IMG/VR virus record: IMGVR_UViG_3300045821_000013
Coordinates: 1,027 to 65,026 of that record
Direction: 5' to 3' (one strand)
DNA from: a virus
Lineage: Duplodnaviria; Caudoviricetes
DNA: 64,000 bases
Shown here: positions 24,175 to 47,333 of the stretch, piece after piece
Layout of the letters: each line of letters begins with the position of its first letter
Position numbering within the stretch: the stretch's first letter is position 1
The notes under the pieces: generated by a model
What the model was told of the DNA's origin: nothing
The model's database searches: none
The model's input: the letters and a program-made list of their open reading frames with translations, nothing else
Made by a program: the position numbers and the translations under genes

Positions 24175-24187
24175 GGCACGTCTCCAA

Positions 24188-24859: not shown

Positions 24860-27800
24860 TCAGTCACGGTTTTTCCTCGTCATGTTTTCATGCGCCTGGC
24901 TGATAATTTCGGGATATTTTAGCATGACATAGCCGCGCGCCGCCTCGCGCGATTGCCGGATCGTCTCGGTTATCACGTCATGCCGCACATGATTCGGCCA
25001 CGACTGAAAATCTTGAGAGTTCACGATCGCGTCGAGGCGCATTTTCGTCATGCGCCCGGCCACGCGCTGATATTCGTCATATTGATCTGGATCAAGCTCC
25101 ACTCCGCGAATTTTCTTTTCGACCTTGGATGGAGCGATTCCGATGCTCAAAAGCGCCAAATTGACCGGATCGCGGCTCATCTGCGTCATATAGATTGCGG
25201 TGACGCCTTTGGCGCCGAGCGCATCATGATTGACCATCGGTTCTCCCCACACGTCGCGGCGCGGCATAAGCTCCTCCGACAAGCCGGGGATTTTCGCTTT
25301 GATCGCATCCATGACGGTGCGCGCCTGCCGGGAGTATGGATCGGCGGCGCGCGCCATCTGCGCCATGCCGACGCTGTAGGGAACGAACGAGGAAGCAAAC
25401 TGGCGGATATAGGATTCGCCATAGCGTCCCGGATCTTCAACCGCCTTGAGCAACTCCGCAGGCCCGCGCATGAACGATTCATCCAGAATATTCTGCGTGA
25501 TCGCATGTTGCAGATGCGCGCCGGCGGCGAGCATATCGCCCTCGCCCGCCGCATGGGCGACATCGTACATATCGGCCGCCACGCCCATCAGCATCCCCAT
25601 CGGCCCAAGGCGGTGGGTGTCGTACCAGATATCGCCAACGCGGACGCTATGCGCCTGATTGCCCGCCAGACGCCACATTGCGGCCTGCCTCGGATCGGAG
25701 GGTCCGGAGCCTGACGCATAGCCATTGGCGGCGAGGCTCCCGAACAGGAGCGAAAGCGCCGTTCCGCAAAGCATCCTCGCCTGCGCCTTGTCCTGTGCAA
25801 TTGTGCCGTTTTTCCCCATGACATCGGCGCGCAGTTCCGGCGAAAGGATCAATCCAAGGGGTGTGCGCTGGATGATGCTCTGGTCGATGACGTTCGAGGA
25901 AATGTGAACGAACGGATCAATAAATTTCAAAAGCTGCGTTTCGCCGAGAACCGGCAAATCAACTTTGATATTGGTCAGCCGCGACATCGCCTTGGTCAAC
26001 TGCCCGCCCTGGCCCATCAGGGTCAAATCGGTCGCGGCGGTGCGCGCCGTTGCTATCAGGTTTTCATCGGGGTTCTGCCAAAGCTCGCCAATGCGCGCCT
26101 CCAGCGCATTTCCTTTCAAGCCCTCGTTCACGGCCTGGCGATAGGCCAAGGACGCCTTTTCCATGGAGTAGTTCAACGAACGGAATAGTGAGTGAATCGC
26201 CGCGATCATGCGCGACGGCGCGCGGGCGATATCTCCGACAGGAATCCGAACCGATCCAACATCGAAATTTGGAATGGCGCCTGTCGCTGAATAATTGGTC
26301 GAAAACGTCGGCTGGTCTTTCAACCCTGCCGCGTCGAGCAATCCGCCGCCCGCACGAAAACCATCGAACAAGCCACGCATCATGCCGAAGGCGCTCGCGC
26401 CGACATCGGCCATGCTGGCGTTTTCATCCAGATGCGCCGGTTCAGCGAACTGGCTTTCTCCTGCGAACGGCATATTTCCAAATTGGTGTTCGCTTGGCAG
26501 GAGCGTCGTTTTGCCGGTTTTCAACGCATCGACGGAGGCTTTGAGCGCAGGAACCATGCCTGCCTTCAGGCCCTTGAATTGCGCGCCGACTTCGCCGCCA
26601 TGGACGACAGGCCCGGCCCGGCCCATTCCGGCCCGCGCTTTTCCGATCATCGCAGCCACCAGGGTTTCCGGCCCGGCCTTTTCGAGCGCCAGCATCATGT
26701 TGCCAATAGTGTACGTGACATGCGTGGCGGGTCCGGAAATCAGCCCGTTAATCCAGTATTCCATCAGCATCGAGCCAAAGGACCGTTTTTGCGAGTCGGC
26801 AATGAACTTGGCGATTTTGTCCGGCGAGTCGAGCGCCGCGCCGAGTTTCGCCTCCGCCTTCAACTGGTAAAGAGTTGTCCCGGTCGCACCCTGCAAGAAC
26901 GTGTCGATGCTTTCCGCTTCCGGTGTCCAAGCCTCCTGCAACTTGCGCAGCGCCCGCAGCGCCCGGCCCGCCTCCGCCGTAGCCTGCGAATAGGCCGCTT
27001 GGATCATCTGGTGACGCGCTTTCGCCCTAGCGTAAGCGATTACATCCTCGTCGGCCTGCGTCTCCGCCGCCTTGTTCATGGCTGCGCGAGTGTCGCGCGC
27101 CGACTGAACCGCAATCATCTGAATTGCGCGAGCCTGTTCGGCATTGTAGGCATCGCCGAGTTTTTTCGCTGTCCAGAAATCAGGATCGGCCCCCAATAGC
27201 GCGCGCGCCATGGCCGTGCTTTCAGAATCGGAAATCTTTCCGCGCCGGTCGCCGATGAAATCATTATTCGCCGCCGCCGTCTCGCGCAGGAGTTCCTTCA
27301 AGTCCTCGGCGCCGTTCACGTTGTCGAGGCGGATATTTCCGGCCTTATCTACGAATTCGGCGGGTTCTGGCCCGAATTGCTCGGCTGGCCTTGGGGCGGG
27401 TTGCCCACTCCGAGCAAGGTTGGCATCATCTGGTCGCTGTTGGCGTCCTGATACGTCAGAGCTTTCTGTCCCAACGTCAGCGCCGCCGCGCTCGATCGCG
27501 CCAGATCCCGCGCCGCGCTCGCCGCCTCCGTCGACAGGTTCGGATGCGCCGCCACCTGGCCCCACATTTCCTTGTCCGCCTGCGCCTGCGCTACCTTGTC
27601 CGCCAGGCTCGGTTCCTGCGCCGGCTGCGCCGCCGGGTTCTTCCTGTTGGGTCGCGGCGATTTCCCCGCGCGCGGTTTCGAGTTCATGCTGTACCTCCGG
27701 CGTTAAATCCTCGATTGCCCTGTCACGTTCTGAAATGACGCGATCCATGGCGGGTTCGGCGTGTTGCGGTTCCGTCTCTTTGGCGTCGATTTCGTGATGG

Positions 27801-30800
27801 TCGGCCAACGATGCAACGGCGCTACGCTCCGGCGCCACGACAGCCGATTGCGGTTCGGCCAGCATCCGGTCGAACACGGCGCGAATATCGGCGTTGATCG
27901 GTTTTCCAAGCCCGGTGAGGGTCTTGTAAATGTTCATCAGCCACGATTTGAACTTGGCGAAAACGCCAGCCAGATCCTTGGATGGAGCTACGCCCTCGCG
28001 CAAATATTGCTCGAATCCCCGCGCGAACTTTTCATGCTGCGCCTTGGTGATTTCCGCACCATCGGCCGCCTTGAGCCATTTGCGCGTCGTGGTCGCATCG
28101 GTTTTTAATTGATCCGGAGCCAGCGGGTGCGCGGCGTCTTTCAGAAGATTATCCAGCCAGTCATGGCCGGTTTCGTGGATCATGGTCGAGGCATTGCGCT
28201 CGGCAAACAAGGTGATGACCTTGCGCTGGCCCTCCACGATCTTGATTTTTCCGCGCGCCGACTGCTGGTGTTCCTCGCCCTCGTCGGATTCGGCGGGTTC
28301 TGCGCCCTCCGGCACTTCCTCGCCGCCAGGGACAGCGTTTGGATCGGTGACGTTGGCCGGATCTTCGCCCTGGATTTCGTTCTCGACTTCGATCTTGCGG
28401 GCGCGCTTTTCTTTCAGCTCGTCCTCCTGCGGCCACTTCTTTTCGACTTCCTTTTCCAGATCGGGGATTTTTCTGGCCGATTCCGCCGCCGCCTTTTCGG
28501 TTCGATCCGCAGTCCAGCGGAATTCCTCCGGCCTCATCATCTGGCGTAATTTGGTAAGAGCGGAATCGACCGCGCCCCAATTGATGCCACCTTTCACCAC
28601 GTAGCCAATTCCGGCCAATTCCTGCCCTTTGTCGTTCAGGGCGGAAAAGCTGATCGAGCGATCTTCCTTCGGATTGTGACTCCATGGTTCCACATCGACT
28701 TCGACGGGAACGCCGTTGATCTTTATTCCATCCAGAGTGTAGGTATCGCCCTTTCCCTTGGCCTTTTCCATAATGGCCGACGCGGCAAAACCGTCGTCCA
28801 AAATGGTCTTGCCGTCGATTTCGGCCTCAAAATCAGGCGTCCCCAATTTGGTCCGAATGGCCTTGTTCAAAGCATCGTGGCTGGTGATTTTTTCGCCGTC
28901 GATATCAATAGACCAACGCACCTTTTCACCTTCTGGAACGTCTCCGAATTTACTTATGATGTATTCACGGACGATTTCGCGCGCTGCCTCAACCGCCTTC
29001 ATGGGTTCAGTATAAGGCTTGTCCCCGATCATGACGGAACGCTTGGCCGAACGCTCCTTGATCGGCTCCATTTTCTTTTCGACTTCATCGGCGAAAGCGC
29101 GATTGCGTTCGATTTTCGCCGGCGCCGTCTCAACATCGCGCCTGGCGCTCGAAAGCTGGTCGCGCATGGCGTTCATCCGGCGTCCGAAAGCCCGCCCCTG
29201 CACTTCCAGCTTGCCGATCTGGCTGACGAGGGTTACGCGCTCGACCATCTTGGGATTGCCGGTGGCGAGAGCGGCCATTTCCGCCATGGAGGCCGATTCC
29301 TCGTCCTCGAATTCCATGTTGAACGAACCGTCGTATTTGCGAATTCCGTTGATCGCCTTAAGTTTGTCGGCGTTCAGCGCCCACATTTTGGCGTCGATGG
29401 AGCGTTCCGTCGCATAGGCGATGACATCGACGGCAAAGCCCGGCTTGTAATTCGGGTTCGGCTGTCCGTTCGGGAAATGCGATTCCACGAACATATTGCC
29501 CTGCCGCACGATGCGCCCCTCGCGCTGCTCGATATCGGAGGGCTTCCATGTCACGTCGGCATGGTGCAAAGCAACAAGCCGATCCTGCACATTGGTTCCA
29601 GCGCCCATGCGCGGGGTCGATCCAATGATGACGCGAACCTCGCCGGATTTCACCTTGTCGAACAGGGCGCTCTTTTGCTCCGGCTTGTCTCCGGCCTCCT
29701 GCACGAAAGCTATTTCATTGGCTGGAATTCCCTTCGCCATGAGTTGGTTCTTGATTTCGTCATAGGCGTTCCAGCCGCCGGTCTGCGCCGAGCGAAGCGA
29801 TTCCATTTCGTTCGCGTCATATTTTTCAAGGCTATCGAGCGCCTTTTGCTGCGCGTTCTCATCCCCGGCGTTGATCGCCTCGCGGAGTTTGTCCCGCAGT
29901 CCGTCGTAGGCTTTCAGGATTTTATCATCGCCTTTGGCCTTCGGCACGGAACGGTCGAGAAATATGATCTGCGTTCCTTTTTCCGGCGTCCACTTGTCGT
30001 AAATCTGGTGAACACGGTTTACGATTTCCGCGATCTTTCCGCCCTGGCTGGTGACGTTGATATTTGGATCGACGGCGCGAGCATCGAGCGAAACCTTGCG
30101 GGCGCGATCCATCAGCGTCAGTCGCTTCTTGTTGCGCTCTTTCCGATCTGGCTCGCCCGGCAATGCCTCGAAACCATCGAACACGTCCTTGAGGATTCGG
30201 ATTTGCTCCGGCGTCGGCGCCACAAGCGCCATTTCGCGGTCGCCCTTTCCTGCAAGTTTCGACGCCACCTTGGGCAAGGGATATTCCTTGCCGGGGTTGT
30301 CCTCGGCATAGGCTTTCTGGATTTCCTCCTGCGTCACGGCATCGGCGACGGAATAGTACAAATCCATCAGCGACTTCATATTCGACCATTCGCGGCCAAG
30401 GCGCGTCACTTCCTTGATGCCGCCCGCCTCGGTCGGTTCATATTTGGCGGCGTAGCTGACATACATCGAGCGCCAGGCGTCGAAGTTCTCGATGCCAAGT
30501 TCCTTCAATTCGTTCGGAACCAGATTGCGCAGGAGCAAATACATTTCAGAAACGGAATTGCTGATCGGCGTTCCGGTCAGGAAAGCGACGGACGAACCGG
30601 GGCGGTCATGGAGCGAGCGCACTTTCATGTGCAGATCCGACGCCTTGAGCGAACCGGCTTTGTCACCCATGCCGGAAATGCCGACGAGGCGCGAGGAATA
30701 GGCCAAATTCTTGAATTCGTGCGCTTCGTCCACGGTCAGATCGTCAATGCCCATTTCCTCGAACGTCAACAGCCGGTCGCGGCTGCGGTTGCGCAGCGTC

Positions 30801-33800
30801 GACATGCGGGTTTCAATGCTGGTGACAAGGCGCTCGGCATCCTTGACGCCCATGGGCTTCCCCCATCCCGTATAGCCTTCCTCGGCAGCCGATTTCTCGG
30901 CATCGACAACCGCGGCGCGAGCGGAAATCAATTCTTCCTCCAGATATCGCTGCTCCGTCGATGGGTCGATGTCGATAAAACCAAGCTGCGAATGGCCGAT
31001 GATGACCATATCGTAATCGCCCGCAGCAACCCGGCTGAACAGGCGGCGGCGGTTATCGCGCTCGAAATCATCCTTGTTAGCGGCCAGAATGTTCGAGCCA
31101 GGATAAAGCAGGCGCGCATCGGCCTCCCATTGTCCGACCAGATGGTTTGGAACAACAATCATGGGTTTGTTTGAAAGGCCCATGCGCCGGCGCTCCATGA
31201 TGCGCGCGATCGCCGTGAAGGTTTTTCCGGCGCCGACGACGTGATCGTACAGCACGGATCGGTCGGTAATGCCGCGCCAGATGCCGTTGAGCTGGTGGCG
31301 GCGCATCTTGATGATCGCATCGGGGATTTTCCCCGGCAGGGTAAGGTGCGATCCATCGCGCTGCGTGGTGACGCGAGTATTGAATTTGTCGTTGAAGATC
31401 CGGACAAGCCGCTGGCGCTGCTCGTCGGCCTGATAAACCCAATCCAGAAACTCGTTGGTCAACTCGGAAGCCTTGGCCTGGCTCTCGGCGGTTTCTTCCT
31501 CCATCACATGGACTTTTCCATCGCTGTCCGTCCATGTGACTTTGATCGGCTGCGAGTTCAGCGTCTTGGTGACGATTTGGCCCGGGTCGAGCGCCCCGCT
31601 GCTGGTCGCCCATTCCGCTTTTGGCTTGCCCTCGTACATGGTCGTGTAGCTGTTAGTCACAGCCGAATAATGCACGAACGATGAGTCATAGCCCAAATGC
31701 TTGAGAAAACTCGCGTAAACGTCGCCGGGAATCCATGAACTGCCCATGTTCGGAGAAATCTGCGACGAATCCCAATCTTCCGGAAGAACCTTCTCCAGCG
31801 CCTTGATATTGGCCTCCAGTCCAGCCTCCTTGGCGGCGTTGAGCTTCTTGCGCACTTGTCCCGACAGATATTGGTCGGAGGCTTCCCAGGTCTGCGTCTC
31901 TGGATTGAGATAAGCGCGCGGCTTCTCGCCCTCGGACAGCGCCTTGGCGGCTCCGGCCTCGTCGGTATCGAGCAAGGAGGCGATGCGTTCCAGATTGATC
32001 TTGCCGCTTTCCGACAGCGAAATAGCGACAGCATCGGAAGCGTCTTTCGCTTTTTCAATGACCTTCGGCGGTTCTGTGACGCGGCGCGACATGATCGCCG
32101 ACTTTTCGACCTGCTTTTCCTTGTTCACATGCTCGACGGCCATAATCAAACCGCCATCCGGCATGAAAAGCGCCAGCTTGCTGTTGGCTTTGTCGTTCAG
32201 GTTTCCATATCTTTCCACGAATTGACCGTAGGCTTGGTTCAGCCGGGCGCGGTTCGCCTCGATCGCCTCTGGCGACGCATCCTGCATTTCGAGCTGCAAC
32301 TGTTCCTTGAAACGGTCGCGGATTGGAAGCATCGCGTCGACGGCGGCGACATTGCGCTCGCCCCACTTATCGCGTGCGGGGATATCGCTTTCGTTCTCGT
32401 AAACGATGGTCTGCTTCTGGTTGCGGTTCGACGGGGTTCCATCGGCCTTCAAGAGCTTGATCGGGTTTCCGGCCTCATCAACGGCGTTTACCGTGCGCTG
32501 CCACTTCCCTTCGAGGTTCATCGTGTAGTCGGGATTGAATGGCGTGTCTTTGGTGAGTGTGATTTCACGCAGGATCGACTTGGCCGCGCCCTCGCCTCCA
32601 TCCATGTCCAAGACGGTTTTCAATTCGCCATCGACGGTTTTCTGGATGCGGCCAGGCTCCGCGCGCTCGACCGCGAGCCTCATGCCATCGGCCATGACGC
32701 GATAATGAACCAACGAGGACGCGGCAATTTCCTCGTTCGGGTCGATGCGCGGCAGTTTTTCAATCGCCGCATCCAGCCGAGATTGAAATTCCTCTTGGTT
32801 TTTCAACTGCACATTCAATTCGGCGCGGCGGTTCATCGTGCCGGTGGCGTTGATATCGCCTACAACCATGTCCCGATTGCGCAGGAAATAGCCGTTGGCA
32901 TTGATCTTCTGGCCGGAGCCTGCTGGATCGTCAATTTCGGAGGAATGTACCCAACGCTCGATTTCGGCCTTGGTTTCCTCATATTCCCATCCGGTGCGCA
33001 GTTCCTTACCACCATCTTTTCCGGGTTTAAGGCCCTTGATATCGTTGACCGCTTCCTGTGCTCTTGTGGCTTCCTCGGATTCGCGCTTTCTCAGGAAAAT
33101 GATATCCGTCACGACTTTTGTGCGGGCGTTTTCCTTGAACGCTGTGTCGGGAAGGCGGATTGCTCCAATAAATTCGCCGGAGCGCGCCAGATCGAGGCGC
33201 GAGGAATTATCGAGCGCATCCATCAAATTATGCGACACAACCATCGCCATCAAACCGCCCGGCCTCACTCCATCCATGGAAGTGAGGAAGAACTGATTAT
33301 GGATCGACTTGCCGTTGGCGGCGGGGTTGTAGCGGAAGTTCAGCGATTCCCGACCGAACGGCGGATTTCCTATCGCCAGGGCAAACTGGTTTTGCGCCAA
33401 CGGAACGTCCTGAAAGCCGGAATGGACGATATCGGCGTTCGGATAGAGCTTTTGCGCAATGCGCGCGGTCAGGTTGTCATATTCGACCGCGAACACGTTC
33501 GACTTGCCGCGCGCTTCCTCCGGCATGAAGCCGATGAAATTTCCGGTTCCGACAGATGGTTCGAGGACGGAGCCGCCAGCAAAGCCCAAACGCTTGACAG
33601 CGGCCCAAACCGATTTGACCACGGCTGGACTTGTATAATGGGCGGCGCCGGTCGAGTTGCGCGCCCGGAGCAGTTCGAGCGGCGTCAGGAGGCTTTCAAT
33701 CTCCGCAACGCGCTTTTCCCAACCTTTGGCGATTCCTTCGCCCTCGGCGGAACCAGCGACGCGGAAAGCGTTTTTCAATCCACCCCATCCGACATAGCGC

Positions 33801-36800
33801 GCGAGAATGGCTTTTTCGTCAGGCGTGGCGCGACGGTTCTCAAATTCGATATCCTTGAGCGTCCGGATCGCGGCGACGTTATCGGCGAATTTCTGGCCTT
33901 CGGTCCCTTTGCCAATCGCCATTTCATCGGTCAGCACAAAATCGGTGTCGGGGATATTGGCCTTGGCCGTCTCGCGCTCGGCAAGCGACGGGTCTTTGTC
34001 GAAAGCCGGGTTCTTGGCATCGACTTCTTCGGAGATTTTCGCCGCGCGCTTTTTGCGGCCTACCTTTCCGGCGGAAGCATTATTGTTTCCGGCAGAACGA
34101 TTTCCTCCGCTTCGTGTTTTTGGTAGCCCTTCTCCATCAGCGCCGCCACCTGGCTCGCCGCCTCCATGCTGGCCTTCTGCGCCCTCTCGTTCAATGTCCC
34201 CGCTTGCCTCAGATCCTTGGTCATTTTCGGGAGATATTCCCTCCAGTGATTCAGGGCTTTCCCCACGTATTGCAGCCCGGTCGTCATCTGCTTCCTCCTT
34301 GATTATGCGCGCCAGTTCGCTCCTAACCTTGTCTGGATCATCGGTCCCGGCGATATCGACTCCATGATCCTCCATCATATCGCGGGCGCCATTGTACCAC
34401 GAACGGAGATAAGGGGTTAGATCGGATAGTTTCGCGCCCAAATCGCGGGCAATGAGGCGAGCAAAGTCAGCGAAGGCCCGCGCGCCGGCCTCGATATGGC
34501 CTGCCGCAAGCTCGGTTCCAATCGCCACCATTTCAGGGTCGATGCCGATGTTGAGCTGCGTTCCGGCATCGCGCAATTTTTGTTTCAGCCGTTCGCGCAG
34601 GATCGCCATGCGATCAGCCGAAACAAGTTTGTTGTTCGCGCCCCATGTCGGCGCGGTTTCAGGTTCGGGCGTTTGCGTTGGGGCGGCTTCTGTCTCCGCT
34701 TCGGCAGGTCGCGCCTCCGTGCTGCGCAGCGCCCGCGCCTCGGCCTCGTCGCTGATCCACATATGGTGGACAGTTTGATGCTTATGCGGCCCAAGTTTCA
34801 GCGCGGCGTCGCCTTCCGCCGCGATATCGCGCGGGTTGTCCAGATTCGATAGTTGCGCCGTCTGTTTCTCGCGCATGGAAATCAGCGCCGCGTCGAGTTC
34901 TTCGCGCGGGATATGGCTCAGTTTCTCGCGCAAGGCGCGAAAGCGCACGTTGTCGCCCGCCGGGCGTCCAGCCAGGGCGAAGAACGCTTTGCGGATTTCC
35001 TTTTCGACCGGCGTTTCCGGCGCAATCGGCGGTTCTTCGACGCGGGGCTTCGGCGGCTTTACGGCCTCGGTAGGTTTCTCGACCGGCGCGGGCGGCTTGC
35101 CTAAAAACGCCTCCATGGCGGCTTCAAGCGTTTCAGGTTCGGATGGTTCCTCGGCAGGCTTGGCCGATTCAGCTTCCTTGGCTGGTTCAAGCAAGCGGCG
35201 CAATTCCGCCCCATTCCTGACGCTCTCGAATTTATCTACGCCGGGGTAATCGCAATCAATTGGTGTTTCCCACCCCATCTTCCAACGCTCGTTGACATAT
35301 CGGGAAAGCTGGCGCACAGCGGCCTCTGTCGGCTTCGTCTTAATGGAAACGTCACCGCTCTTGTCGAATATAGCCGCTGCGATAGTGATCCTAATCGCGC
35401 CTGTGTCGCGCATCATATCGGGGATAGCGTTGTCTCCTATCCCATATCCTAGTTCTGAGGAAATCTGTTCATGGGTATTATCGCCTCCGCCCAATAGCCG
35501 ACCATCAGGAAGAATAAATTTGGCTTCAGAGACATTTTCCGGTTTCCAAAATTCAGCCATGTCTTCGGGCGTAAGTGTCCGATACGGAACTTTTTCTTTG
35601 TTGGATGCCCCTTCCGGCGCGATATCGGCGGCTGGCGGCGATTCCTTTTGAAGTTCTTTGACGCGCTCTTTTGCCTGCCTCAGCCTGGAAAGCAGGCGAT
35701 CGTCCACGACTTGGCCCTGCTCATCGAGCCGCGCTTGCAGTTCCATGACGGTGTTCATGGCGTCAACAAGCTCAGACTTGCCAGATTCAGCGGCGGGCGG
35801 CGGCGCTTCGCCCTCGGCCCAATCCTTCTTGTGCTGCTCCAACTTACTTTTGTGTGTCGCTGACTCCTCAGCCGTCAGATATTCAGGCCGATTGATGCGG
35901 TTCGTTTCGAGGCGGGTTCCTTCGCGCGTCGGGATGGTCGAAACTGGCTCGGTGTAGCGAATCCCATCCATGAGATAAGACCGCGCGCCGCGCTTGTCCT
36001 CCCAAAGATCGCGGCCATACTCGTTCTTGCCGACAAACTTTCGCCCGGCGGCGTCCTCGTCGCCTGGCGCGGCCTCGCGCGGCGCTTCCGGTTCTTTGTA
36101 AGCCACTTCGCGCATTGGATTGGCGTCAGTGTCATAAACCTTTCCGAGTTTTTCAATCTTTTCGGAACTGACATTGCTCCACTTGGCCGAGCGTTTCAGT
36201 TTTACATCGGCGGCGTCGATGACTTGGCCGCGCTCGCCCGGCGACATGGCATCCCACCACATGGCGAGTTTTTGCTCGCGTGGCGTGTCAGGCGAGACGG
36301 TGAAATCGCGCTTCGGAAGGCGGGCAGTGGGCGCTGGTGTCTCGGCCTGCGGACCATGGATCATCCGTGATGCTTCGACCTTGGCTGCGTCCAAATCCTT
36401 GACGATGCTGATAGGCCCGACCGTTTCTTGCGCATCGGTGTCGCGCAGGACGACGCTGAATTTGTCGTCTCGGCGCTTTATGATGAGAACTTCCGTTCCA
36501 TCGCCTTCCTTGCCGGGGATGCGCTCGACAAGCCCCTCTGGATCTGTAGTTAACGCCTCCGGCGGCGCAGCGGGTTCCGGTTCCTGTCGGCCTGCCGTGA
36601 TTGTCGTTTCGGCCATGGCCGGCGCAGGCGCGACTTTTTTCTTGGCCGGTGCAGGCTTGGTAGCATTTTCCTTGATGCTGTCCACAACCCGCTGGAAGTC
36701 GAGCGGTTCGGCAAGCGGCTTCAAGCCCTCGTTCGGGTGGTAGGAAAAGCCTTGGCTCTTTCCGGCCTCGTTCGGGCGCGCAAGCAGGATGGTCCCGTTA

Positions 36801-38506
36801 TTGTGGGGCGGCGTGGTTACAAGAAGGTCATTGCCTTCCAGATGAACCATGTTGCCGGGGTGCTTCCATGCGTCTGGTTCGGTGGCCTTGCGCCTGGCGG
36901 CGAATTCCGCCCATAGATCAGGCCCGGTCTTTCCCTCTGCCTCTGGCGGCGGCACAACGGGCGTATTCGGCGGGCGAGCTGGAGCCATGGGCTTGCCGTC
37001 TTTGCCGCGATAGATCGGGTCGCGCTCATGGTAGAGTTGTTCCGCCGTGCCGCGCTGGCCTTTGAACTGCCGGGCGAGCGTATCGTAATAGGCGGCGCGC
37101 ATCTGGCCGTGGGCTTCGGCTTCCTCTTTGCTCAATCCGACCGCTTCGAGGCGGCGCGCGACATCGGCGGCGATGAAATTCTTTTGGACGCTGATATCTC
37201 GCGGCGCGGTCGCTGTTCCGGCGAGCGTTTCGCCATTCTCGACGTTCGGCGCCGGGACTGGCGGTTCGGCGACGGGAGCCGGTTCCTCTTGATGCGCGAC
37301 AGTTTCGGTCCCGATCCTCTCGGCGGCGCGGCGATAGGTCGCGGCAATCTGCGGGTCCAGTTCGTGTAATTTGGCGTCGATCGCGTCAAGATGCTTCTTC
37401 GCCTGTTCGACTTCCGACGTCTGCCCGCCTTCCAGCGATTCATTTACCCATCCAGCCAGGGTGTCACGTTGCGCTTTCACGCGGGCATGTTCGGCGAAAA
37501 GCTCAGGCTCCATGCGCTGTGCAGTAGCGTGAATATCCGGCGTGATCTGGTCGGTTCCCATAATCGCGCGCTCGGTGCGCAATTGCTCTTGCGCCTCCAT
37601 GTCGGATGCCGGATCGCGCTGCTTGGCTCCGTTGTGGGTTTCCTCGGTCGCGCCCTTGCCGACAATGCCGGCGGCGTCCACCTCGGCGATAGTCGGAGAG
37701 GGCTTTTCCGGTTCTGCCGCAGCCTCGGTCGGTTCCGGCCTGCCCAACATGCGCCGCATAGGATGCGCGGTAGTTTCCTCGATTCTCTTTCCAACGGCGT
37801 TCATGTTGTTGAACACGACGCCAAACGCCGTCGATGCCGCAACCTTGCGCCAGTCCAGATCCCCGTCCAGTTCTTCCTGCGCGAGTTCTATGCCGCCTTG
37901 CAAGCCGCCGCCGAAAATGCGCGCGGTGTAAGGGTTCGCCATGATGCGCTGGAGCGCCGTAGCGTTCTCAGGAAGTTTCGTCAGCGCCTTTTCCGCAGCG
38001 AAGGGCGACATGGTGAGCGCCATGGGAATGAGGCCGCCCAGGAACGAGGCCATGGGATGCTGCTTTTCGGACTCACGCTCCCAATTCTCAAGCGGGTCTT
38101 TCCATGAATCGGGCAATTTCTGGATTGCGGCCTCTTGGCCTTTGCCCGCGAGCCAGCCGCCGCCGAACGCGCCGGTAAGACCGCCAACCAATCCACCAGC
38201 CGCCGCGCCCCAAGGCCCTGCGAAAGCGCCGAGCGCCGCGCCTGCCTCCATGCCTGCGCCTGCGCCTGCGATGCCGCCTGCGGTCGGAACCACGCCAAGC
38301 ACGGCGTGACCGGCGGCGGCGCCGAGCGCGGAAGTTTCTTGCGGCTGTGCATCGACGGTCTGTTTATAGACCTGATCGAAAGGATTGGCCGAAGGCTGCT
38401 CTGCCTGCGCCTGGCGCTGCGGAGTGCTGACGCTGGCCGGGGTGCTGTCGACGGAATCCTTATAGACCTGATCGAACGGGTTCAGCGAATTCTGGTCATC
38501 GGTCAT
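24860..38506 (-). CDS. Giant (4548 aa) DarB-like polyvalent internal virion protein: adenine MTase + SNF2 helicase + zincin HExxH + C-terminal LPD-type domain
   Basis: VLEPSVGTG (~33550), GNPPFG (~33360), HVVGAGKT (~31230), DEAHEFKN (~30720), LTGTPISN, EQREGRIVRQG (~29510), IHETGH (~28170); last gene of the ejection-protein cluster. Confidence 0.88.
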   Translation of the reverse strand: MTDDQNSLNPFDQVYKDSVDSTPASVSTPQRQAQAEQPSANPFDQVYKQTVDAQPQETSALGAAAGHAVLGVVPTAGGIAGAGAGMEAGAALGAFAGPWGAAAGGLVGGLTGAFGGGWLAGKGQEAAIQKLPDSWKDPLENWERESEKQHPMASFLGGLIPMALTMSPFAAEKALTKLPENATALQRIMANPYTARIFGGGLQGGIELAQEELDGDLDWRKVAASTAFGVVFNNMNAVGKRIEETTAHPMRRMLGRPEPTEAAAEPEKPSPTIAEVDAAGIVGKGATEETHNGAKQRDPASDMEAQEQLRTERAIMGTDQITPDIHATAQRMEPELFAEHARVKAQRDTLAGWVNESLEGGQTSEVEQAKKHLDAIDAKLHELDPQIAATYRRAAERIGTETVAHQEEPAPVAEPPVPAPNVENGETLAGTATAPRDISVQKNFIAADVARRLEAVGLSKEEAEAHGQMRAAYYDTLARQFKGQRGTAEQLYHERDPIYRGKDGKPMAPARPPNTPVVPPPEAEGKTGPDLWAEFAARRKATEPDAWKHPGNMVHLEGNDLLVTTPPHNNGTILLARPNEAGKSQGFSYHPNEGLKPLAEPLDFQRVVDSIKENATKPAPAKKKVAPAPAMAETTITAGRQEPEPAAPPEALTTDPEGLVERIPGKEGDGTEVLIIKRRDDKFSVVLRDTDAQETVGPISIVKDLDAAKVEASRMIHGPQAETPAPTARLPKRDFTVSPDTPREQKLAMWWDAMSPGERGQVIDAADVKLKRSAKWSNVSSEKIEKLGKVYDTDANPMREVAYKEPEAPREAAPGDEDAAGRKFVGKNEYGRDLWEDKRGARSYLMDGIRYTEPVSTIPTREGTRLETNRINRPEYLTAEESATHKSKLEQHKKDWAEGEAPPPAAESGKSELVDAMNTVMELQARLDEQGQVVDDRLLSRLRQAKERVKELQKESPPAADIAPEGASNKEKVPYRTLTPEDMAEFWKPENVSEAKFILPDGRLLGGGDNTHEQISSELGYGIGDNAIPDMMRDTGAIRITIAAAIFDKSGDVSIKTKPTEAAVRQLSRYVNERWKMGWETPIDCDYPGVDKFESVRNGAELRRLLEPAKEAESAKPAEEPSEPETLEAAMEAFLGKPPAPVEKPTEAVKPPKPRVEEPPIAPETPVEKEIRKAFFALAGRPAGDNVRFRALREKLSHIPREELDAALISMREKQTAQLSNLDNPRDIAAEGDAALKLGPHKHQTVHHMWISDEAEARALRSTEARPAEAETEAAPTQTPEPETAPTWGANNKLVSADRMAILRERLKQKLRDAGTQLNIGIDPEMVAIGTELAAGHIEAGARAFADFARLIARDLGAKLSDLTPYLRSWYNGARDMMEDHGVDIAGTDDPDKVRSELARIIKEEADDDRAAIRGESPESLEGISPENDQGSEASGDIEREGAEGQHGGGEPGGGADGEGLPKTRSGGNRSAGNNNASAGKVGRKKRAAKISEEVDAKNPAFDKDPSLAERETAKANIPDTDFVLTDEMAIGKGTEGQKFADNVAAIRTLKDIEFENRRATPDEKAILARYVGWGGLKNAFRVAGSAEGEGIAKGWEKRVAEIESLLTPLELLRARNSTGAAHYTSPAVVKSVWAAVKRLGFAGGSVLEPSVGTGNFIGFMPEEARGKSNVFAVEYDNLTARIAQKLYPNADIVHSGFQDVPLAQNQFALAIGNPPFGRESLNFRYNPAANGKSIHNQFFLTSMDGVRPGGLMAMVVSHNLMDALDNSSRLDLARSGEFIGAIRLPDTAFKENARTKVVTDIIFLRKRESEEATRAQEAVNDIKGLKPGKDGGKELRTGWEYEETKAEIERWVHSSEIDDPAGSGQKINANGYFLRNRDMVVGDINATGTMNRRAELNVQLKNQEEFQSRLDAAIEKLPRIDPNEEIAASSLVHYRVMADGMRLAVERAEPGRIQKTVDGELKTVLDMDGGEGAAKSILREITLTKDTPFNPDYTMNLEGKWQRTVNAVDEAGNPIKLLKADGTPSNRNQKQTIVYENESDIPARDKWGERNVAAVDAMLPIRDRFKEQLQLEMQDASPEAIEANRARLNQAYGQFVERYGNLNDKANSKLALFMPDGGLIMAVEHVNKEKQVEKSAIMSRRVTEPPKVIEKAKDASDAVAISLSESGKINLERIASLLDTDEAGAAKALSEGEKPRAYLNPETQTWEASDQYLSGQVRKKLNAAKEAGLEANIKALEKVLPEDWDSSQISPNMGSSWIPGDVYASFLKHLGYDSSFVHYSAVTNSYTTMYEGKPKAEWATSSGALDPGQIVTKTLNSQPIKVTWTDSDGKVHVMEEETAESQAKASELTNEFLDWVYQADEQRQRLVRIFNDKFNTRVTTQRDGSHLTLPGKIPDAIIKMRRHQLNGIWRGITDRSVLYDHVVGAGKTFTAIARIMERRRMGLSNKPMIVVPNHLVGQWEADARLLYPGSNILAANKDDFERDNRRRLFSRVAAGDYDMVIIGHSQLGFIDIDPSTEQRYLEEELISARAAVVDAEKSAAEEGYTGWGKPMGVKDAERLVTSIETRMSTLRNRSRDRLLTFEEMGIDDLTVDEAHEFKNLAYSSRLVGISGMGDKAGSLKASDLHMKVRSLHDRPGSSVAFLTGTPISNSVSEMYLLLRNLVPNELKELGIENFDAWRSMYVSYAAKYEPTEAGGIKEVTRLGREWSNMKSLMDLYYSVADAVTQEEIQKAYAEDNPGKEYPLPKVASKLAGKGDREMALVAPTPEQIRILKDVFDGFEALPGEPDRKERNKKRLTLMDRARKVSLDARAVDPNINVTSQGGKIAEIVNRVHQIYDKWTPEKGTQIIFLDRSVPKAKGDDKILKAYDGLRDKLREAINAGDENAQQKALDSLEKYDANEMESLRSAQTGGWNAYDEIKNQLMAKGIPANEIAFVQEAGDKPEQKSALFDKVKSGEVRVIIGSTPRMGAGTNVQDRLVALHHADVTWKPSDIEQREGRIVRQGNMFVESHFPNGQPNPNYKPGFAVDVIAYATERSIDAKMWALNADKLKAINGIRKYDGSFNMEFEDEESASMAEMAALATGNPKMVERVTLVSQIGKLEVQGRAFGRRMNAMRDQLSSARRDVETAPAKIERNRAFADEVEKKMEPIKERSAKRSVMIGDKPYTEPMKAVEAAREIVREYIISKFGDVPEGEKVRWSIDIDGEKITSHDALNKAIRTKLGTPDFEAEIDGKTILDDGFAASAIMEKAKGKGDTYTLDGIKINGVPVEVDVEPWSHNPKEDRSISFSALNDKGQELAGIGYVVKGGINWGAVDSALTKLRQMMRPEEFRWTADRTEKAAAESARKIPDLEKEVEKKWPQEDELKEKRARKIEVENEIQGEDPANVTDPNAVPGGEEVPEGAEPAESDEGEEHQQSARGKIKIVEGQRKVITLFAERNASTMIHETGHDWLDNLLKDAAHPLAPDQLKTDATTTRKWLKAADGAEITKAQHEKFARGFEQYLREGVAPSKDLAGVFAKFKSWLMNIYKTLTGLGKPINADIRAVFDRMLAEPQSAVVAPERSAVASLADHHEIDAKETEPQHAEPAMDRVISERDRAIEDLTPEVQHELETARGEIAATQQEEPGGAAGAGTEPGGQGSAGAGGQGNVGPGGGASEPVDGGGERGAGSGAIERGGADVGTESSDVSGRQQRPDDANLARSGQPAPRPAEQFGPEPAEFVDKAGNIRLDNVNGAEDLKELLRETAAANNDFIGDRRGKISDSESTAMARALLGADPDFWTAKKLGDAYNAEQARAIQMIAVQSARDTRAAMNKAAETQADEDVIAYARAKARHQMIQAAYSQATAEAGRALRALRKLQEAWTPEAESIDTFLQGATGTTLYQLKAEAKLGAALDSPDKIAKFIADSQKRSFGSMLMEYWINGLISGPATHVTYTIGNMMLALEKAGPETLVAAMIGKARAGMGRAGPVVHGGEVGAQFKGLKAGMVPALKASVDALKTGKTTLLPSEHQFGNMPFAGESQFAEPAHLDENASMADVGASAFGMMRGLFDGFRAGGGLLDAAGLKDQPTFSTNYSATGAIPNFDVGSVRIPVGDIARAPSRMIAAIHSLFRSLNYSMEKASLAYRQAVNEGLKGNALEARIGELWQNPDENLIATARTAATDLTLMGQGGQLTKAMSRLTNIKVDLPVLGETQLLKFIDPFVHISSNVIDQSIIQRTPLGLILSPELRADVMGKNGTIAQDKAQARMLCGTALSLLFGSLAANGYASGSGPSDPRQAAMWRLAGNQAHSVRVGDIWYDTHRLGPMGMLMGVAADMYDVAHAAGEGDMLAAGAHLQHAITQNILDESFMRGPAELLKAVEDPGRYGESYIRQFASSFVPYSVGMAQMARAADPYSRQARTVMDAIKAKIPGLSEELMPRRDVWGEPMVNHDALGAKGVTAIYMTQMSRDPVNLALLSIGIAPSKVEKKIRGVELDPDQYDEYQRVAGRMTKMRLDAIVNSQDFQSWPNHVRHDVITETIRQSREAARGYVMLKYPEIISQAHENMTRKNRD

Positions 38507-41472
38507 TGTTTCGCCTTGTCCCGCTCCGAAATGCGTTCTTTTTGCGCATCCAGAATGATTTGCTTGAGCGGATTATTATCCGGCAGGGTCTTTGCTTTTG
38601 CAATCACGTCCTCTGGTTCGCCCTGAAGCCATTCGTGCAATTTATGAATTGCGCCACCCGCCGCACCATAAACCTTGCCGTATAATTTCGGGAAGGCGAC
38701 AAGATTCTCGACTGCCCGCATATCCCGCTCCTCTCTTTTTTCGACTTTGGCCGGTTCCTCCTGCGGAACAGCCGATTTTGGTTCTGCGACCGGCTTTGTC
38801 ACGTCGAGCGGCCTGCCAGTCTCGAACGGAGGTTTCCCGGTCAACATCTTGATAAGCTCGGCGCCGTCCAATCCGGTCTTTCCAAATTGCGAATCGTTGA
38901 ATGCTTTGGCCGCTTCCGGCGTCGGGTTCTCAATGAGTTTTTGCAAAACAGCCTGCCAGCCTGCTTTGACAAACGGCGTTCCGGTTTCATCCGCCGGCGG
39001 CTTTTGTGCGATGGTCTGCCATGCTTTCGGATCTGCGCCGGATGGAGCTGGAACGATATCGTTGGCGTTCTTCTGTTGGCCGAATTCTCCTAAGGTGCGC
39101 GAATCCGACGACATGCGCGCGTACATTTCTTCGGTGCGCGTCCGCTTGAAGGTTCCAATCATCTTGTCGATATTTTCGGGCGTGTAAAAGTCCTTCGGGT
39201 CTTTGTTGTCCTTCACCCATTTGTCGTAGGAAAACGGAAGCGCCATGGCGAAAGCCGAAAACCGTTTTTCGCCGTCCGGATCGGTGCGATGGATGCCCGC
39301 CGCCGACAATTCCTGATCGAAGGAAAGCGCCTGCTTGGCTCTAACCAAGGCGTAGGTCTTGGCCTGCGCCACGCCCGCCGTCTCGTCCTTCATCGTCATC
39401 TTGAGCGTTTCCAGCGCATCAGACGCGCCGCGCTTGGTCAATCGACCATCGGCCTCCATCTGCATGATCTGGAGTGGATCGCTGATTTTTTCCTCGGCGC
39501 CAAATGGAGCCGATATCGCCTTGATGGCGCGAAGATGCTCCGGCCCCATATCGGATTCATCGACGTTTCCGGTGCGCTTCGTCACCAAGGCGCGAAGCGT
39601 GTCCTTTACCGACTCGCCGCGAATTCCAGTCAAACGAGGATCGTTGTTGATATCATCGAAGATCGAGCGGCCTCCGGAGCGCGAGCCATAATCGTGCTTG
39701 TCCATGCGCTGGCTGTATTCGTCCGAGACATGGTTGTGGATTGCCGTCTCGCGGGTTTCCTCAGCCTTCAATCCAAGCATGTCCGCCTGCGCCCGCGTCT
39801 CGATCTGGCGGCGATAGGCTTCCTGCGCCTCATAGGACATGCCCTGCGGCATGGCGCGCATGGCGTTGGCTTGATGCTCCTGAACGTCCGCAATGCGATC
39901 CTCGATCGAGGGCGGCGGCGGCGGCAAGGGCGGTAATGTTCCTGGCCCCGGCGTCGAGGGCAATGCAGGCGCAGCGGCGTCGACAGGCGATAATGCTTGA
40001 CCGCCAGCCGCCTGCGGCATCTGCATCGACTTTCCGGCGCCGAAGGCTGGTGCGCCTGCAATCTGCGAGGGTCCGCCCTTGATCGGAGCGCCGTTCGATC
40101 CAGTGAGAGTTCCGTTCGCCATTTGCGAAAAATACCGCAGCGTGTTCAACCGCCCGGTGTAGTTCAAACCTCCCTTTGGGTTTGACGACGTGTAGGCCAT
40201 GGGCTGTTCGTAGCGCATCTGCGCAACAGCCAGATCATCGACCGATTGCGCCGCGTTGACGGCGGCCCCTTCCGGCCTTGAGCGCAATTCCGTCAAAGCC
40301 ATTTTGGCTTGGTTCTGCCACGACTGCCAGCGCATATCCATGCGAGCATCGTTGTGACCATAGAGGCCATGGCCCTGATAGACGCCATTTTTCGGATCGT
40401 GCTGTGCATTTGGATCGAACGACGATTCCGATGCAGCTCCGCCGGTCAGCATCAGGGCTTCGTTGTTCGAGGCCCCGATGGATTTGAGATAGGAATAATG
40501 GTCTGCCGCCGAAAATCCTCCAGCGCCCTTGTGGTCGAGGGGCTGCGTGTAGGCGGTATTCGTCAATCCGATGCCATTGGCTCCAGCCGCCGGTCCAGAG
40601 GACGGTGAAGCGCCCGCGCTCGGTCGCGGCACATTGTCGTAGTTGTGGTCCGCCGCCCCGGTTCCTGTGTTCAGATCGCGCTGGTGCTTCAATTGCTCGG
40701 CAAGAGCCGGATAAAGCGCGCCAAGTTCTTTTTGGTGGGCTTCGGCCATGGTCGCCGCCGCCGCCGGGTCTTTGGCGCGTATGGCTTCAATGCGCGTGTG
40801 CCAGGCGTCTTGTGTCGCCCGCATCCTGGCGTCTGCCGCGCCGGTCGCGCCGCCTCCCGTCAAATCGTTGGTTTTCAAATAGGCCGTTTGCAGATCGGCG
40901 GCGTTGTGGTTGAACGCATTGTCATCGGCGGCGTTGACGGAGATATTGTTCTTGGCGATATCGGCGCTGGATTTATTCGTCTCCTGCCCGTATTGCGTCA
41001 TCGCCACTTCGCCGGCATGTCCAACCATCTGGTCATGGTTCTGCCGGATGCGGCGCGAATATTGGTCGAATTGCAGTTGCGATTCCGGCGAGGAAAGCCC
41101 GGCGCGAATTTCTTTCAGGTCGTTGTCCATGTCGATGGCGAGCTGCGGCCTCGCCCGCAGCATGTCAGCGCCCTTCAAACCAAAATATCCGGTATCTGGA
41201 GTCGGCTTTCCATCCGGCCCCGTCACCATCTTGGATGGATCGCCATAAAGCCGCTTGTTCCAGCGGTCGGATAACTGGTTCGTTCCGTCGTCCGCCGCGA
41301 CCTGTCCATAAAACTGGCCGGCCTTGACTGCGCCCTGGCCTGCTTCCTTCATGCCTTGCGCGATTGCGCCGCCGAACATTTCGGGGCGGGCGTCGATCTT
41401 TTGAAGATCGTCCGGAGCCTGAATTTGCGGAGTGACCGACGTTTCCGCGCCAGAATAGGGCGAATTTGCCAT
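38503..41472 (-). CDS. Internal virion (ejection) protein with tail-lysozyme-like muralytic domain
   Basis: ALMLTGGAASESSFDPNAQ...GHGLYGH...ALTELRS...MRYEQP (~40140-40500) in an otherwise helical 989-aa protein. Confidence 0.7.
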   Translation of the reverse strand: MANSPYSGAETSVTPQIQAPDDLQKIDARPEMFGGAIAQGMKEAGQGAVKAGQFYGQVAADDGTNQLSDRWNKRLYGDPSKMVTGPDGKPTPDTGYFGLKGADMLRARPQLAIDMDNDLKEIRAGLSSPESQLQFDQYSRRIRQNHDQMVGHAGEVAMTQYGQETNKSSADIAKNNISVNAADDNAFNHNAADLQTAYLKTNDLTGGGATGAADARMRATQDAWHTRIEAIRAKDPAAAATMAEAHQKELGALYPALAEQLKHQRDLNTGTGAADHNYDNVPRPSAGASPSSGPAAGANGIGLTNTAYTQPLDHKGAGGFSAADHYSYLKSIGASNNEALMLTGGAASESSFDPNAQHDPKNGVYQGHGLYGHNDARMDMRWQSWQNQAKMALTELRSRPEGAAVNAAQSVDDLAVAQMRYEQPMAYTSSNPKGGLNYTGRLNTLRYFSQMANGTLTGSNGAPIKGGPSQIAGAPAFGAGKSMQMPQAAGGQALSPVDAAAPALPSTPGPGTLPPLPPPPPSIEDRIADVQEHQANAMRAMPQGMSYEAQEAYRRQIETRAQADMLGLKAEETRETAIHNHVSDEYSQRMDKHDYGSRSGGRSIFDDINNDPRLTGIRGESVKDTLRALVTKRTGNVDESDMGPEHLRAIKAISAPFGAEEKISDPLQIMQMEADGRLTKRGASDALETLKMTMKDETAGVAQAKTYALVRAKQALSFDQELSAAGIHRTDPDGEKRFSAFAMALPFSYDKWVKDNKDPKDFYTPENIDKMIGTFKRTRTEEMYARMSSDSRTLGEFGQQKNANDIVPAPSGADPKAWQTIAQKPPADETGTPFVKAGWQAVLQKLIENPTPEAAKAFNDSQFGKTGLDGAELIKMLTGKPPFETGRPLDVTKPVAEPKSAVPQEEPAKVEKREERDMRAVENLVAFPKLYGKVYGAAGGAIHKLHEWLQGEPEDVIAKAKTLPDNNPLKQIILDAQKERISERDKAKQ

Positions 41473-46469: not shown

Positions 46470-47329
46470 GCAAAATTACCATCGAACGGCATCGTGAAAT
46501 ATCCATCGAAGTCCACCCATCCGCCCCGCCCATAGGCTCCGCGCATCCCTCCAGACATGCGTTCGCGCATCCAGTCGACCGGAATATCGTTCGACATGGG
46601 TTGCTCGTTTCCATCCGCGATGCGCGCCTGCATGATCGCCTCCTTGGCAATTATCATCTGCTCACGGCGCAAAGCCATTCCGGCGCGCTTGTCCTTGGTC
46701 AAAGGCAAGGCCACTTTTGCGGCGAGGATGGCGACAATCGCCTCGCGGAACAACGAATCCCACATGGACGGATAGGGGTTGAACATCGTGTAGATCATTT
46801 GCGCATTGGGCGCATTGGTCAGCACGACAAGGCGGCCGGTTGGACTGAGGCCGGGAACGTCCCACCATTGCTGCCCTGGCGCGACCGGGTAATTTGGATC
46901 GTTGATGAGGCAAAATTTCGCGCGCCTCATTGGATTGCCATAGGACGTTGTAAGCTGCCCTGTCGTCAACGGAGCGCCAGACGTGCCAATGTTCCCGGCG
47001 GGCGTCCCCACGCCGCTGTAGCCCGGCTGATAGCGCACGGAGCGCGCCCGCAAGCAGTCGGTCGGATAGGAATATTCGTAAAGGGCGTTCATCGGCACGA
47101 TAGTTCCGACATTCGGCGTGGCGCCGCTGGCGTCGGCGAGCAAGGTCATTGCCTCAATCTTGGTGGCGAAATTCCAGTTTGCCGAGCGCAAAAGCTGGCG
47201 GATCGTCTCCCCATAAGCGCGCAACAGCACTTGCGCCTCGCGCGAACCGTCCTCGATATCGCCCAGGACGACTTCCGAACCGATGGCGTCGAGGGCTTGA
47301 TTGGCGATGTCTGCCGGAAGGCCGCTCAT
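46466..47329 (-). CDS. Tail tubular protein A / adaptor paralog 3
   Basis: DIANQALDAIG...WNFATK...YEYSYPTDC...DSLFREAIVAILA. Confidence 0.75.
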   Translation of the reverse strand: MSGLPADIANQALDAIGSEVVLGDIEDGSREAQVLLRAYGETIRQLLRSANWNFATKIEAMTLLADASGATPNVGTIVPMNALYEYSYPTDCLRARSVRYQPGYSGVGTPAGNIGTSGAPLTTGQLTTSYGNPMRRAKFCLINDPNYPVAPGQQWWDVPGLSPTGRLVVLTNAPNAQMIYTMFNPYPSMWDSLFREAIVAILAAKVALPLTKDKRAGMALRREQMIIAKEAIMQARIADGNEQPMSNDIPVDWMRERMSGGMRGAYGRGGWVDFDGYFTMPFDGNFA

Positions 47330-47333
47330 TCAT

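Follow-up and report, generated by a model that had tools for sequence, protein, structure and literature searches.

A giant protein at the end of a T7-like virion gene run carries a putative DarB-type methylase-helicase unit inserted into a conserved chassis

Introduction

In the paper in which Iyer, Burroughs, Anand, de Souza and Aravind defined the polyvalent proteins in 2017, DarB of phage P1 is a capsid-borne protein that shields the incoming DNA from type I restriction, and a module of SWI2/SNF2, adenine methylase and LPD36 domains, accompanied by a zincin-like HExxH domain, is presented as a pervasive theme (PMC5512222). For gp69 of phage JC1, a giant of this kind with 4515 amino acids (aa) that takes up 22.1% of its genome, 51 unique peptides were recovered from virions purified on CsCl (PMC9144972). 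In phage N4 the third and largest ejection protein, gp50 (3500 aa, about four copies per virion), begins with a membrane-type N-terminal domain, continues with the polymerase and an HExxH subdomain, and ends in a helical domain of 110 kDa that lacks structural relatives (PMC13434306, 2026). In this work we analysed a giant gene located at 24860..38506 on the minus strand of a 64,000-nucleotide stretch of DNA, here called the window, of a virus of the Caudoviricetes (IMG/VR record IMGVR_UViG_3300045821_000013). The window comprises bases 1027-65026 of the 65,026-bp record, for which CheckV gives 100% completeness.

Giant DarB-like proteins cost the phage a fifth of its genome, and to our knowledge no mechanism has been worked out for them outside P1. 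The original prediction for this gene, made from the sequence alone, was a polyvalent, virion-delivered protein fusing a DarB-like methylase-SNF2 helicase with a zincin motif and many small domains. The polyvalent, virion-delivered character is the interpretation that we favour, on the strength of the homology of the core, the ejection slot, the C-terminal match and the mass spectrometry (MS) of JC1 virions. We consider it likely that, among the internal virion (ejection) proteins of a T7-style podophage, the giant is the largest, and that it is built from a chassis and an inserted DarB-type payload that would protect the incoming DNA.

Results

The giant gene and its parts

The gene had been described as one open reading frame (ORF) taking 21% of the genome, and it is indeed intact: it starts with ATG, is stop-free throughout its 4548 codons, and its 13,647 bases make up 20.99% of the 65,026 bases of the IMG/VR record. 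The product has a calculated mass of 496 kDa and a pI of 5.4. The ATG of the giant gene and the stop codon of the upstream gene, which encodes a 989-aa protein, share the sequence ATGA. The motifs listed in the original prediction (NPFDQVYK, methylase, SNF2 and HETGH) could all be located in the translation at the positions given there, together with the long linkers. As judged from composition, the linkers are rich in P/E/A/K or in G (aa ~250-300, 400-440, 500-530, 615-655, 1100-1170, 1400-1500, 3350-3415 and 3600-3710) and alternate with more hydrophobic stretches. The predicted parts of the gene, all on the minus strand, are the following.

24860..38506, minus strand: whole gene, predicted polyvalent protein of 4548 aa (496 kDa); ORF, ATGA overlap
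36947..38506, minus strand: predicted N-terminal chassis module, aa 1-~520; homology, hydropathy
38327..38506, minus strand: tandem N-terminal short motif, aa 1-60; NPFDQVYK at aa 9 and 41
34646..36946, minus strand: cargo part 1, short globular stretches and P/E/A/K linkers, aa ~521-1287; composition
35141..36094, minus strand: cassette unlike that of a near-identical relative, aa ~805-1122; comparison with P0152
34307..34645, minus strand: predicted helical domain travelling with DarB-like units, aa 1288-1400; BLASTP
33047..33991, minus strand: LPD36-like region and predicted gamma-class N6-adenine methylase, aa 1506-1820; motifs, Pfam, PHROG
31337..33046, minus strand: region between methylase and helicase, aa 1821-2390; conserved among DarB-like proteins
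29102..31336, minus strand: predicted SNF2-type ATPase, aa 2391-3135; Pfam SNF2-rel_dom, Helicase_C, ResIII
28295..29101, minus strand: post-helicase region, then acidic linker, end of the cargo, aa 3136-3404; similarity boundaries
27797..28294, minus strand: HExxH module, assigned to the chassis, aa 3405-3570 (H3444, E3445, H3448, E3492); invariant in 34 homologues
27380..27796, minus strand: helical tail of the HExxH module (to ~aa 3620), then Gly-rich low-complexity linker, aa 3571-3709
24863..27379, minus strand: large alpha-helical C-terminal domain, assigned to the chassis, aa 3710-4548; homology, predicted fold

A megablast search of the phage collection with the giant gene gave no match, and a 73-bp match to a Bosea plasmid was rejected as being of chance size. 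Two long antisense ORFs lie within the gene on the plus strand (28676-31174, 832 codons, and 31856-34126, 756 codons); they are taken to be by-products of a coding strand with 58% G+C.

Two conserved ends and one insert

A homologous ORF was found at 35 IMG/VR loci, with lengths from 987 to at least 4,459 aa and a median near 2,100. The short members of this set reveal how the giant is constructed. An IMG/VR protein of 1815 aa aligns to aa 9-501 and aa 3415-4547 of the window protein and to nothing between, and relatives of 1,577-1,815 aa likewise align to aa ~8-516 and ~3397-4547 with no intervening match. In these shortest full forms nothing separates the N-terminal module from the HExxH module. 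Because the shortest relatives join both modules directly, the window protein can be described as a chassis with an insert of ~2,900 aa (aa ~520 to ~3400), and the conserved chassis is formed by the two ends, aa 1-~520 and ~3400-4548. The full-length layout is found, for example, in P0187 (4396 aa), which is 60% identical over aa 1288-4545, and in P0154 (4156 aa, 55%).

The cargo in the slot between the two ends was counted among 67 long relatives, using precomputed Pfam domains:

DarB-type units (PF28553-28555, usually with PF00176 and/or other helicase families): 18 relatives
ART-PolyVal: 11 relatives
Zeta-toxin: 10 relatives
Sno-type helicase: 8 relatives
RelA_SpoT: 3 relatives
GNAT: 3 relatives
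ParB and others: few relatives

Two further features of the cargo deserve mention. P0183 (4606 aa), which has the same chassis and a DarB unit, also contains LAGLIDADG_3 (PF14528), suggesting an intein or a homing endonuclease inside the giant gene. P0181, P0182 and P0185, again with the same chassis, contain a RelA_SpoT nucleotide pyrophosphokinase domain, alone or with a DarB unit; such cargo would represent injected alarmone-type synthetases.

The DarB-type core

The DarB-like methylase-SNF2 identity proposed originally was borne out by a PHROG match, by annotated giants of other phages and by distant homology to P1 DarB. The window protein matches PHROG phrog_10089, 'DarB-like antirestriction', with 1480.8 bits. 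In Pfam SNF2-rel_dom was above its cut-off (32.4 vs 24.9 bits); Helicase_C, ResIII and the Eco57I methylase (E 0.0012) were below theirs. The catalytic motifs are intact. In the methylase YTSP (aa 1624), motif I GTGNF (aa 1653) and motif IV NPPF (aa 1714) follow each other in the order of the gamma-class N6-adenine methylases (TP-type motif, motif I, NPP(Y/F)), and the SNF2 ATPase fused C-terminally to the methylase retains motifs I-VI (GAGKT 2425, DEAH 2593, TGTP 2644, QREGRIVRQGN 2994). At aa 1573, where the GxGU motif of LPD36 is expected, the protein has GWGG, with no match to an LPD36 model.

A tblastn search with aa 1500-3600 matched 192 phage records. The best matches were giants annotated as 'DarB-like antirestriction' in Ochrobactrum phage POI1126, Agrobacterium phage Atu_ph08, Vibrio phage VvAW1, Erwinia phages Pavtok and PEp14, Klebsiella phages LASTA and SopranoGao, Sinorhizobium phage PBC5 and Ralstonia phages. 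These annotated giant genes encode 3,640-5,007 aa in genomes of 39-64 kb. In BLASTP comparisons with the POI1126 and Atu_ph08 proteins only aa ~1254-3180 proved to be common (33-39% identity; 36-39% over ~1,500 aa of the core). The stretch at aa 1288-1400 is 54-62% identical to the giants of Klebsiella LASTA, Serratia Parlo and Ochrobactrum POI1126. In the region between methylase and helicase (aa 1821-2390) the coverage by PHROG 10089 and 11801 starts at aa ~2044; aa 2036-2390 can be aligned to POI1126, and nearly the whole region to Atu_ph08. Similarity to POI1126 stops near aa 3180 and similarity to the chassis starts at aa ~3395-3415. The methylase of P1 DarB (aa 91-282) was found by BLASTP with 32% identity (E 2e-22), and its helicase lobes (E 9e-8 and 7e-4) are collinear with the window protein. 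Judging from motifs and homology, the core (aa ~1290-3180) appears to be a complete DarB-type unit consisting of an LPD36-like region, an N6-adenine methylase and an SNF2 translocase. When the PDB was searched by sequence or profile, no meaningful match was obtained for the core, the HExxH module or the C-terminal domain.

The first part of the cargo and its mobility

The N-terminal part of the insert is less easily described. No Pfam or PHROG family was found for aa 521-1287, a Pfam search with six segments at E≤5 gave nothing credible for aa 1-1500, and aa 600-1200 had no counterpart among 150 family representatives. A short piece, aa 818-883, recurs in three relatives. The 'many small domains' of the original prediction agree, for aa ~530-1290, with the composition and with the patchy similarity to relatives, and found no support from a family model or a fold. 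Look-alikes of aa 965-1105 in the ESM Atlas, fragments of portal proteins, were discarded on account of low recognition and too few common features to be trusted.

One relative, P0152 (4343 aa), is 93-95% identical on either side of aa ~805-1122, which are replaced in it by ~70 unrelated residues; the comparison points to a recent cassette swap. The DarB cores seem to be mobile as well. In a maximum likelihood tree of 28 methylase-helicase cores those located in this chassis were interleaved with cores of other chassis types, and at least three changes of the chassis label are required by branches whose Shimodaira-Hasegawa-like approximate likelihood ratio test (SH-aLRT) values are 95 or more. 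This would mean that DarB cores moved between chassis types at least three times, a count that is indicative, not final, because it comes from a quick IQ-TREE run with SH-aLRT support in which P1 DarB and P0052 are on long branches.

The HExxH module

The HETGH motif is at aa 3444. H3444, E3445, H3448 and E3492 are invariant in 34 homologues, the cargo-free ones included. The glutamate, a candidate third ligand, is 43 residues past H3448, a spacing which fits gluzincins. The module, found also in gp16 of Pseudomonas phage AF (profile E 7e-57), belongs by its distribution to the chassis and did not arrive with the DarB unit. Since its catalytic residues are kept in cargo-free relatives, processing of the cargo cannot be its sole role. 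A nearly invariant Q...G falls exactly at the junction of the variable cargo and the HExxH module, and might be a processing site.

Of the zincin suggested for this region the HExxH and the invariant glutamate stood up, and a zincin hidden Markov model or fold match did not: in Pfam there were stray, sub-threshold matches to M32, M3 and M78 in one or two of 34 members, and the MPTase-PolyVal model did not match the window protein. The AlphaFold model of the module is mostly helical with a predicted local distance difference test (pLDDT) value of 83.7; in its helical tail, to aa ~3620, the model has a pLDDT of ~90 and the columns are conserved among homologues. A convincing PDB neighbour was found neither for this model nor for that of the C-terminal domain.

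The N- and C-terminal parts of the chassis

The N-terminal module has 30-40% identity to the N-termini of relatives of 1.6-4.6 thousand aa. Within the first 90 aa an 8-mer is duplicated in 25 of the 33 homologues scored, a value reached by at most 1 of 100 shuffles. The sequence of the motif is specific to the protein: LPTADEFF, QPVGPDPF, LPTWDEA, DPFAALPD and PFxSLDDL are each present in two copies within the protein concerned. As the motif varies across proteins and is yet duplicated inside each of them, the two copies must change together; the between-protein motif score was out of register and is used here qualitatively. Behind the motif region come two hydrophobic segments, of which the first (aa 60-125) is rich in Gly/Ala and the second spans aa 152-170. 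The module also gave a weak, sub-threshold match to the C-terminus of the P22 ejection protein gp7.

The C-terminal 849 aa matched 11,629 cluster representatives (clusters of 50% identity) at E≤1e-3. Among the matches listed the match was C-terminal in all 150 representatives, and the proteins with this domain were, evident fragments aside, ~1,400-4,400 aa long. By tblastn the domain matched 'internal virion protein (D)' of marine and other T7-like phages (Syn5, CRP-804, ProddE; E 1e-13 to 1e-29), belonging to cyanopodoviruses, pelagiphages and roseophages, and there was a match to PHROG 6651 (E 3.6e-21). The model of the domain (pLDDT 76) is largely helical. In a Foldseek search of BFVD the model matched internal virion proteins of Synechococcus and Pelagibacter phages (E 1e-14 to 1e-18) as well as the C-terminal parts of proteins carrying the names ART-PolyVal, LPD-containing or MuF-C; over both groups together the E values ran from 1e-13 to 1e-27. 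In the PDB the best Z was 6.4, to single helical hairpins, nothing being above background.

Genomic neighbourhood

All same-strand neighbours of the giant gene are virion genes. The features recognised around it are:

59500-61326, minus strand: head-tail adaptor/portal-type protein
57083-57922, minus strand: protease
55397-56440, minus strand: major head protein
42456..48514, minus strand: tail tube genes overall; PHROG 376, PHROG 394
46466-48514, minus strand: three tandem small tail-protein paralogues; PHROG 394 three times
42456-46469, minus strand: 1337-aa tail protein; PHROG 376
41993-42451, minus strand: 152-aa internal virion protein; PHROG 308
41482-42003, minus strand: 173-aa internal virion protein; PHROG 418
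38503..41472, minus strand: 989-aa protein in the T7 gp15 position, weak lysozyme-like matches; PHROG, Pfam
24188-24643, minus strand: 151-aa Phage_lysozyme2 protein; E 1.5e-26

In T7 the genes follow each other in the order gp11, gp12, gp13/14, gp15, gp16. The run of genes in the window follows this order, and the giant gene is in the gp16 position, the last of the run. The 173-aa protein spans nearly the whole T7_gp14 profile (E 0.004, below the cut-off). The 989-aa protein has an endolysin match in PHROG (aa 93-250, E 7e-7) and a Phage_lysozyme2 match in Pfam (aa 322-427, E 6.5e-5, below the cut-off). In most of the 35 related IMG/VR contigs at least one homologue of the upstream genes precedes the large gene, and wherever a contig has several of them their order is the same. 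In 28 of the 35 contigs a homologue of the 989-aa protein gene lies upstream.

The wall-cutting function appears to be located in the 989-aa protein of the gp15 position and not in the giant. The three PHROG 394 genes (287, 204 and 189 aa) stand in series as a triplicated gp11-position gene; T7 has a single gene in this position. The 151-aa protein encoded directly downstream of the giant is probably the endolysin, and the two ORFs that follow (23702-24187 and 23219-23698) had no family match. Three minus-strand ORFs of the virion module, 48631-50271 (546 aa), 51228-52562 (444 aa) and 61382-62746 (454 aa), matched no PHROG at E≤1e-3, and no large terminase was recognised among the ORFs scanned.

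Discussion

Packaging, ejection and membrane insertion, and with them methylation, anti-restriction and proteolysis, are what we infer for this phage from the construction of the protein and the position of its gene. The chassis would serve to place the giant in the procapsid core, alongside the gp14-like and the lysozyme-bearing proteins. After adsorption it would carry the giant through the tail to the inner-membrane end of the ejection channel. There, at the site of DNA entry, the DarB unit could move along the phage DNA as it arrives and, acting in cis, methylate or shield it ahead of host restriction enzymes, as P1 DarB does against type I systems. Cleavage of the polypeptide at its linkers, during maturation or after entry, may be a task of the HExxH module. 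Assuming ~4 copies, as in T7 and N4, the giant would add an estimated ~2 MDa to the virion vs ~42 MDa of capsid DNA, therefore the coding cost would be far above the packaging cost.

It must be noted that several observations weigh against this interpretation. The virion MS evidence was obtained for giants with a different chassis. Packaging of P1 DarB requires DarA, Hdf, DdrA and Ulx (PMC9144972). The hydrophobic stretches of the N-terminal module are only moderate (Kyte-Doolittle means of 1.2-1.4 over 19 residues). The model of the HExxH module had a best Z of 5.9 in the PDB, to unrelated proteins, with nothing at E≤0.001 in Foldseek; because it had no match above background, we do not claim a zincin fold. 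Neither T7 gp16 nor any solved structure was matched by the C-terminal domain by sequence, profile, Foldseek or VIA-align, the 839-residue model exceeding the size recommended for wide searches. For the same reason, a model without a PDB match above background, a T7 gp16 fold is not claimed either.

The two ends may be of wider use than the DarB-type payload found here. Tentatively, as a possibility to which we give somewhat less than even weight, they could serve a very large group of podophages, most of them uncultivated, as a general delivery chassis with one slot in which effectors are swapped fast; the N-terminal motif would be a docking or packaging signal, and the HExxH module a maturation or release protease acting independently of the cargo. 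If true, this would be the phage counterpart of the polymorphic-toxin architecture and a natural scaffold for protein delivery into bacteria.

A payload may be injected and still have a main target other than type I restriction: BREX, DISARM, type III or Dnd-like systems, host nucleoid or transcription complexes could be the targets, or the small domains could be the real effectors. There is something to be said for this. NCBIfam gave partial matches to DISARM DrmD, a Dnd restriction enzyme and a MADS methylase, no function could be assigned to ~770 aa of the cargo, the effectors found in sister proteins are diverse, and Iyer et al. propose several simultaneous targets (PMC5512222). On the other hand, the NCBIfam matches are far below the cut-offs, and for this reason we read them as reflecting shared SNF2 and methylase folds; P1 DarB, the only member of the module with genetics, protects against type I enzymes (PMC5512222). 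We regard a different main target as unlikely.

DNA import relies in N4 on transcription by the ejected polymerase, and in T7 on gp16 and RNA polymerase. One could imagine that the SNF2 translocase, anchored in the membrane, is a genome-import motor and that methylation is secondary. The giant gene is in the slot of T7 gp16 and N4 gp50 (PMC13434306), the layout of its product resembles gp50, and the SNF2 motifs, those of a translocase on double-stranded DNA, are intact. However, relatives with the same chassis (1,577-1,815 aa) are cargo-free, and in others the cargo consists of ART, zeta-toxin, RelA_SpoT or GNAT domains, thus the payload must be dispensable for DNA entry in this phage group. 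Switching of DarB cores between chassis types also fits an accessory effector better. An import motor is in our opinion very unlikely.

That the giant is an unpackaged late cytoplasmic enzyme, serving progeny methylation, replication or packaging and placed among virion genes incidentally, is hardly credible: phage-encoded orphan methylases are common and the virion evidence for giants comes from other chassis, but the gene is translationally coupled to internal virion genes in an order kept in most related contigs, its end modules are common to annotated internal virion proteins, and homologous giants were found in virions (PMC9144972).

We thus prefer to see the giant as an ejection protein with a protective payload. 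For phage anti-restriction the giant leaves the current picture as it is. Its value lies rather in the comparison set that comes with it: relatives without cargo, relatives with other loads, and one that is nearly identical but for a swapped cassette. With the module boundaries defined here, dissection of packaging and ejection, release of cargo by the HExxH module and chassis-based protein delivery become testable.

Comparison with known systems

It is instructive to compare the window protein with the giants of cultured podophages, Bcep22 gp75 (4602 aa), JC1 gp69 (4515 aa), POI1126 gp30 (4841 aa) and Atu_ph08 gp21 (4877 aa), and with those of the same type in LASTA, Pavtok, Gamede and VvAW1. 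Like the window protein, they are encoded by one ORF of ~3.6-5 thousand aa, which fills roughly one fifth or more of a genome of 39-64 kb and is located in or beside the virion module. The helical domain, an LPD36-like region, N6-adenine methylase and SNF2 core are common to all, with 30-42% identity. The ends are different. Profiles of the HExxH module and the C-terminal domain did not match the giants of POI1126, Atu_ph08 and Bcep22, and the window protein, unlike the PLxRFG giants, has no PLxRFG or RFG motif and no such NCBIfam match; for these two reasons we think that the cultured giants use another chassis. Unlike the giants of the Bcep22, PEp14 and LASTA type, the window protein has no lysozyme or SLT/transglycosylase domain by Pfam or PHROG. 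Gene order differs too: it is T7-like in the window, whereas in the Bcep22-type virion module the portal and capsid genes resemble those of E. coli phage 933W (PMC9144972).

P1 DarB has the same succession of methylase and SNF2 domains, collinear with the window core, at a distant level of similarity. It is, with 2255 aa, half the size and has none of the chassis modules, and P1 is a myovirus. The polyvalent proteins as a class resemble the window protein in combining many unrelated domains in one polypeptide of a late gene cluster, and the chassis relatives with ART-PolyVal, zeta-toxin, RelA/SpoT or ParB domains have cargo of the polyvalent type. The Pfam LPD models did not match the window protein. 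The searchable part of PMC5512222 contains none of the terms 'gp16', 'internal virion', 'ejection' and 'transmembrane', and this chassis, a single insertion slot or a tandem N-terminal motif is not described there.

Among ejection proteins, N4 gp50 has a similar layout, with an RNA polymerase in place of the methylase-helicase. When the profiles were compared with the single N4 gp50 sequence by hhalign and hmmsearch only 13 columns around the HExxH were aligned; as no sequence homology was found, the likeness is architectural only. The internal virion protein D of T7-like phages (Syn5 gp45, P60, S-CBP2/3, Pelagibacter and Roseobacter podophages) is, like the giant, the last of the internal virion run, and its C-terminal ~450-840 aa are similar to those of the giant. 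The marine proteins are, in contrast, ~800-1,400 aa long and carry no enzymatic payload. T7 gp16 differs in its N-terminal transglycosylase, which is missing from the giant. Pseudomonas phage AF gp16 (2213 aa) is encoded at the same place in the gene order, behind the genes of two internal virion proteins and of one that bears a lysozyme. Its HExxH module is 46% identical to that of the giant (~41% in Xanthomonas CP2-like phages by tblastn); it lacks a DarB unit and its C-terminal domain is not detectably related.

The type of protein described here is thus already published, as Bcep22 gp75, JC1 gp69 and the polyvalent proteins (PMC9144972, PMC5512222). What the present locus adds to these systems is the chassis-plus-slot anatomy, an HExxH module that belongs to the chassis, a tandem N-terminal motif whose copies co-vary, and an apparently recent cassette swap.

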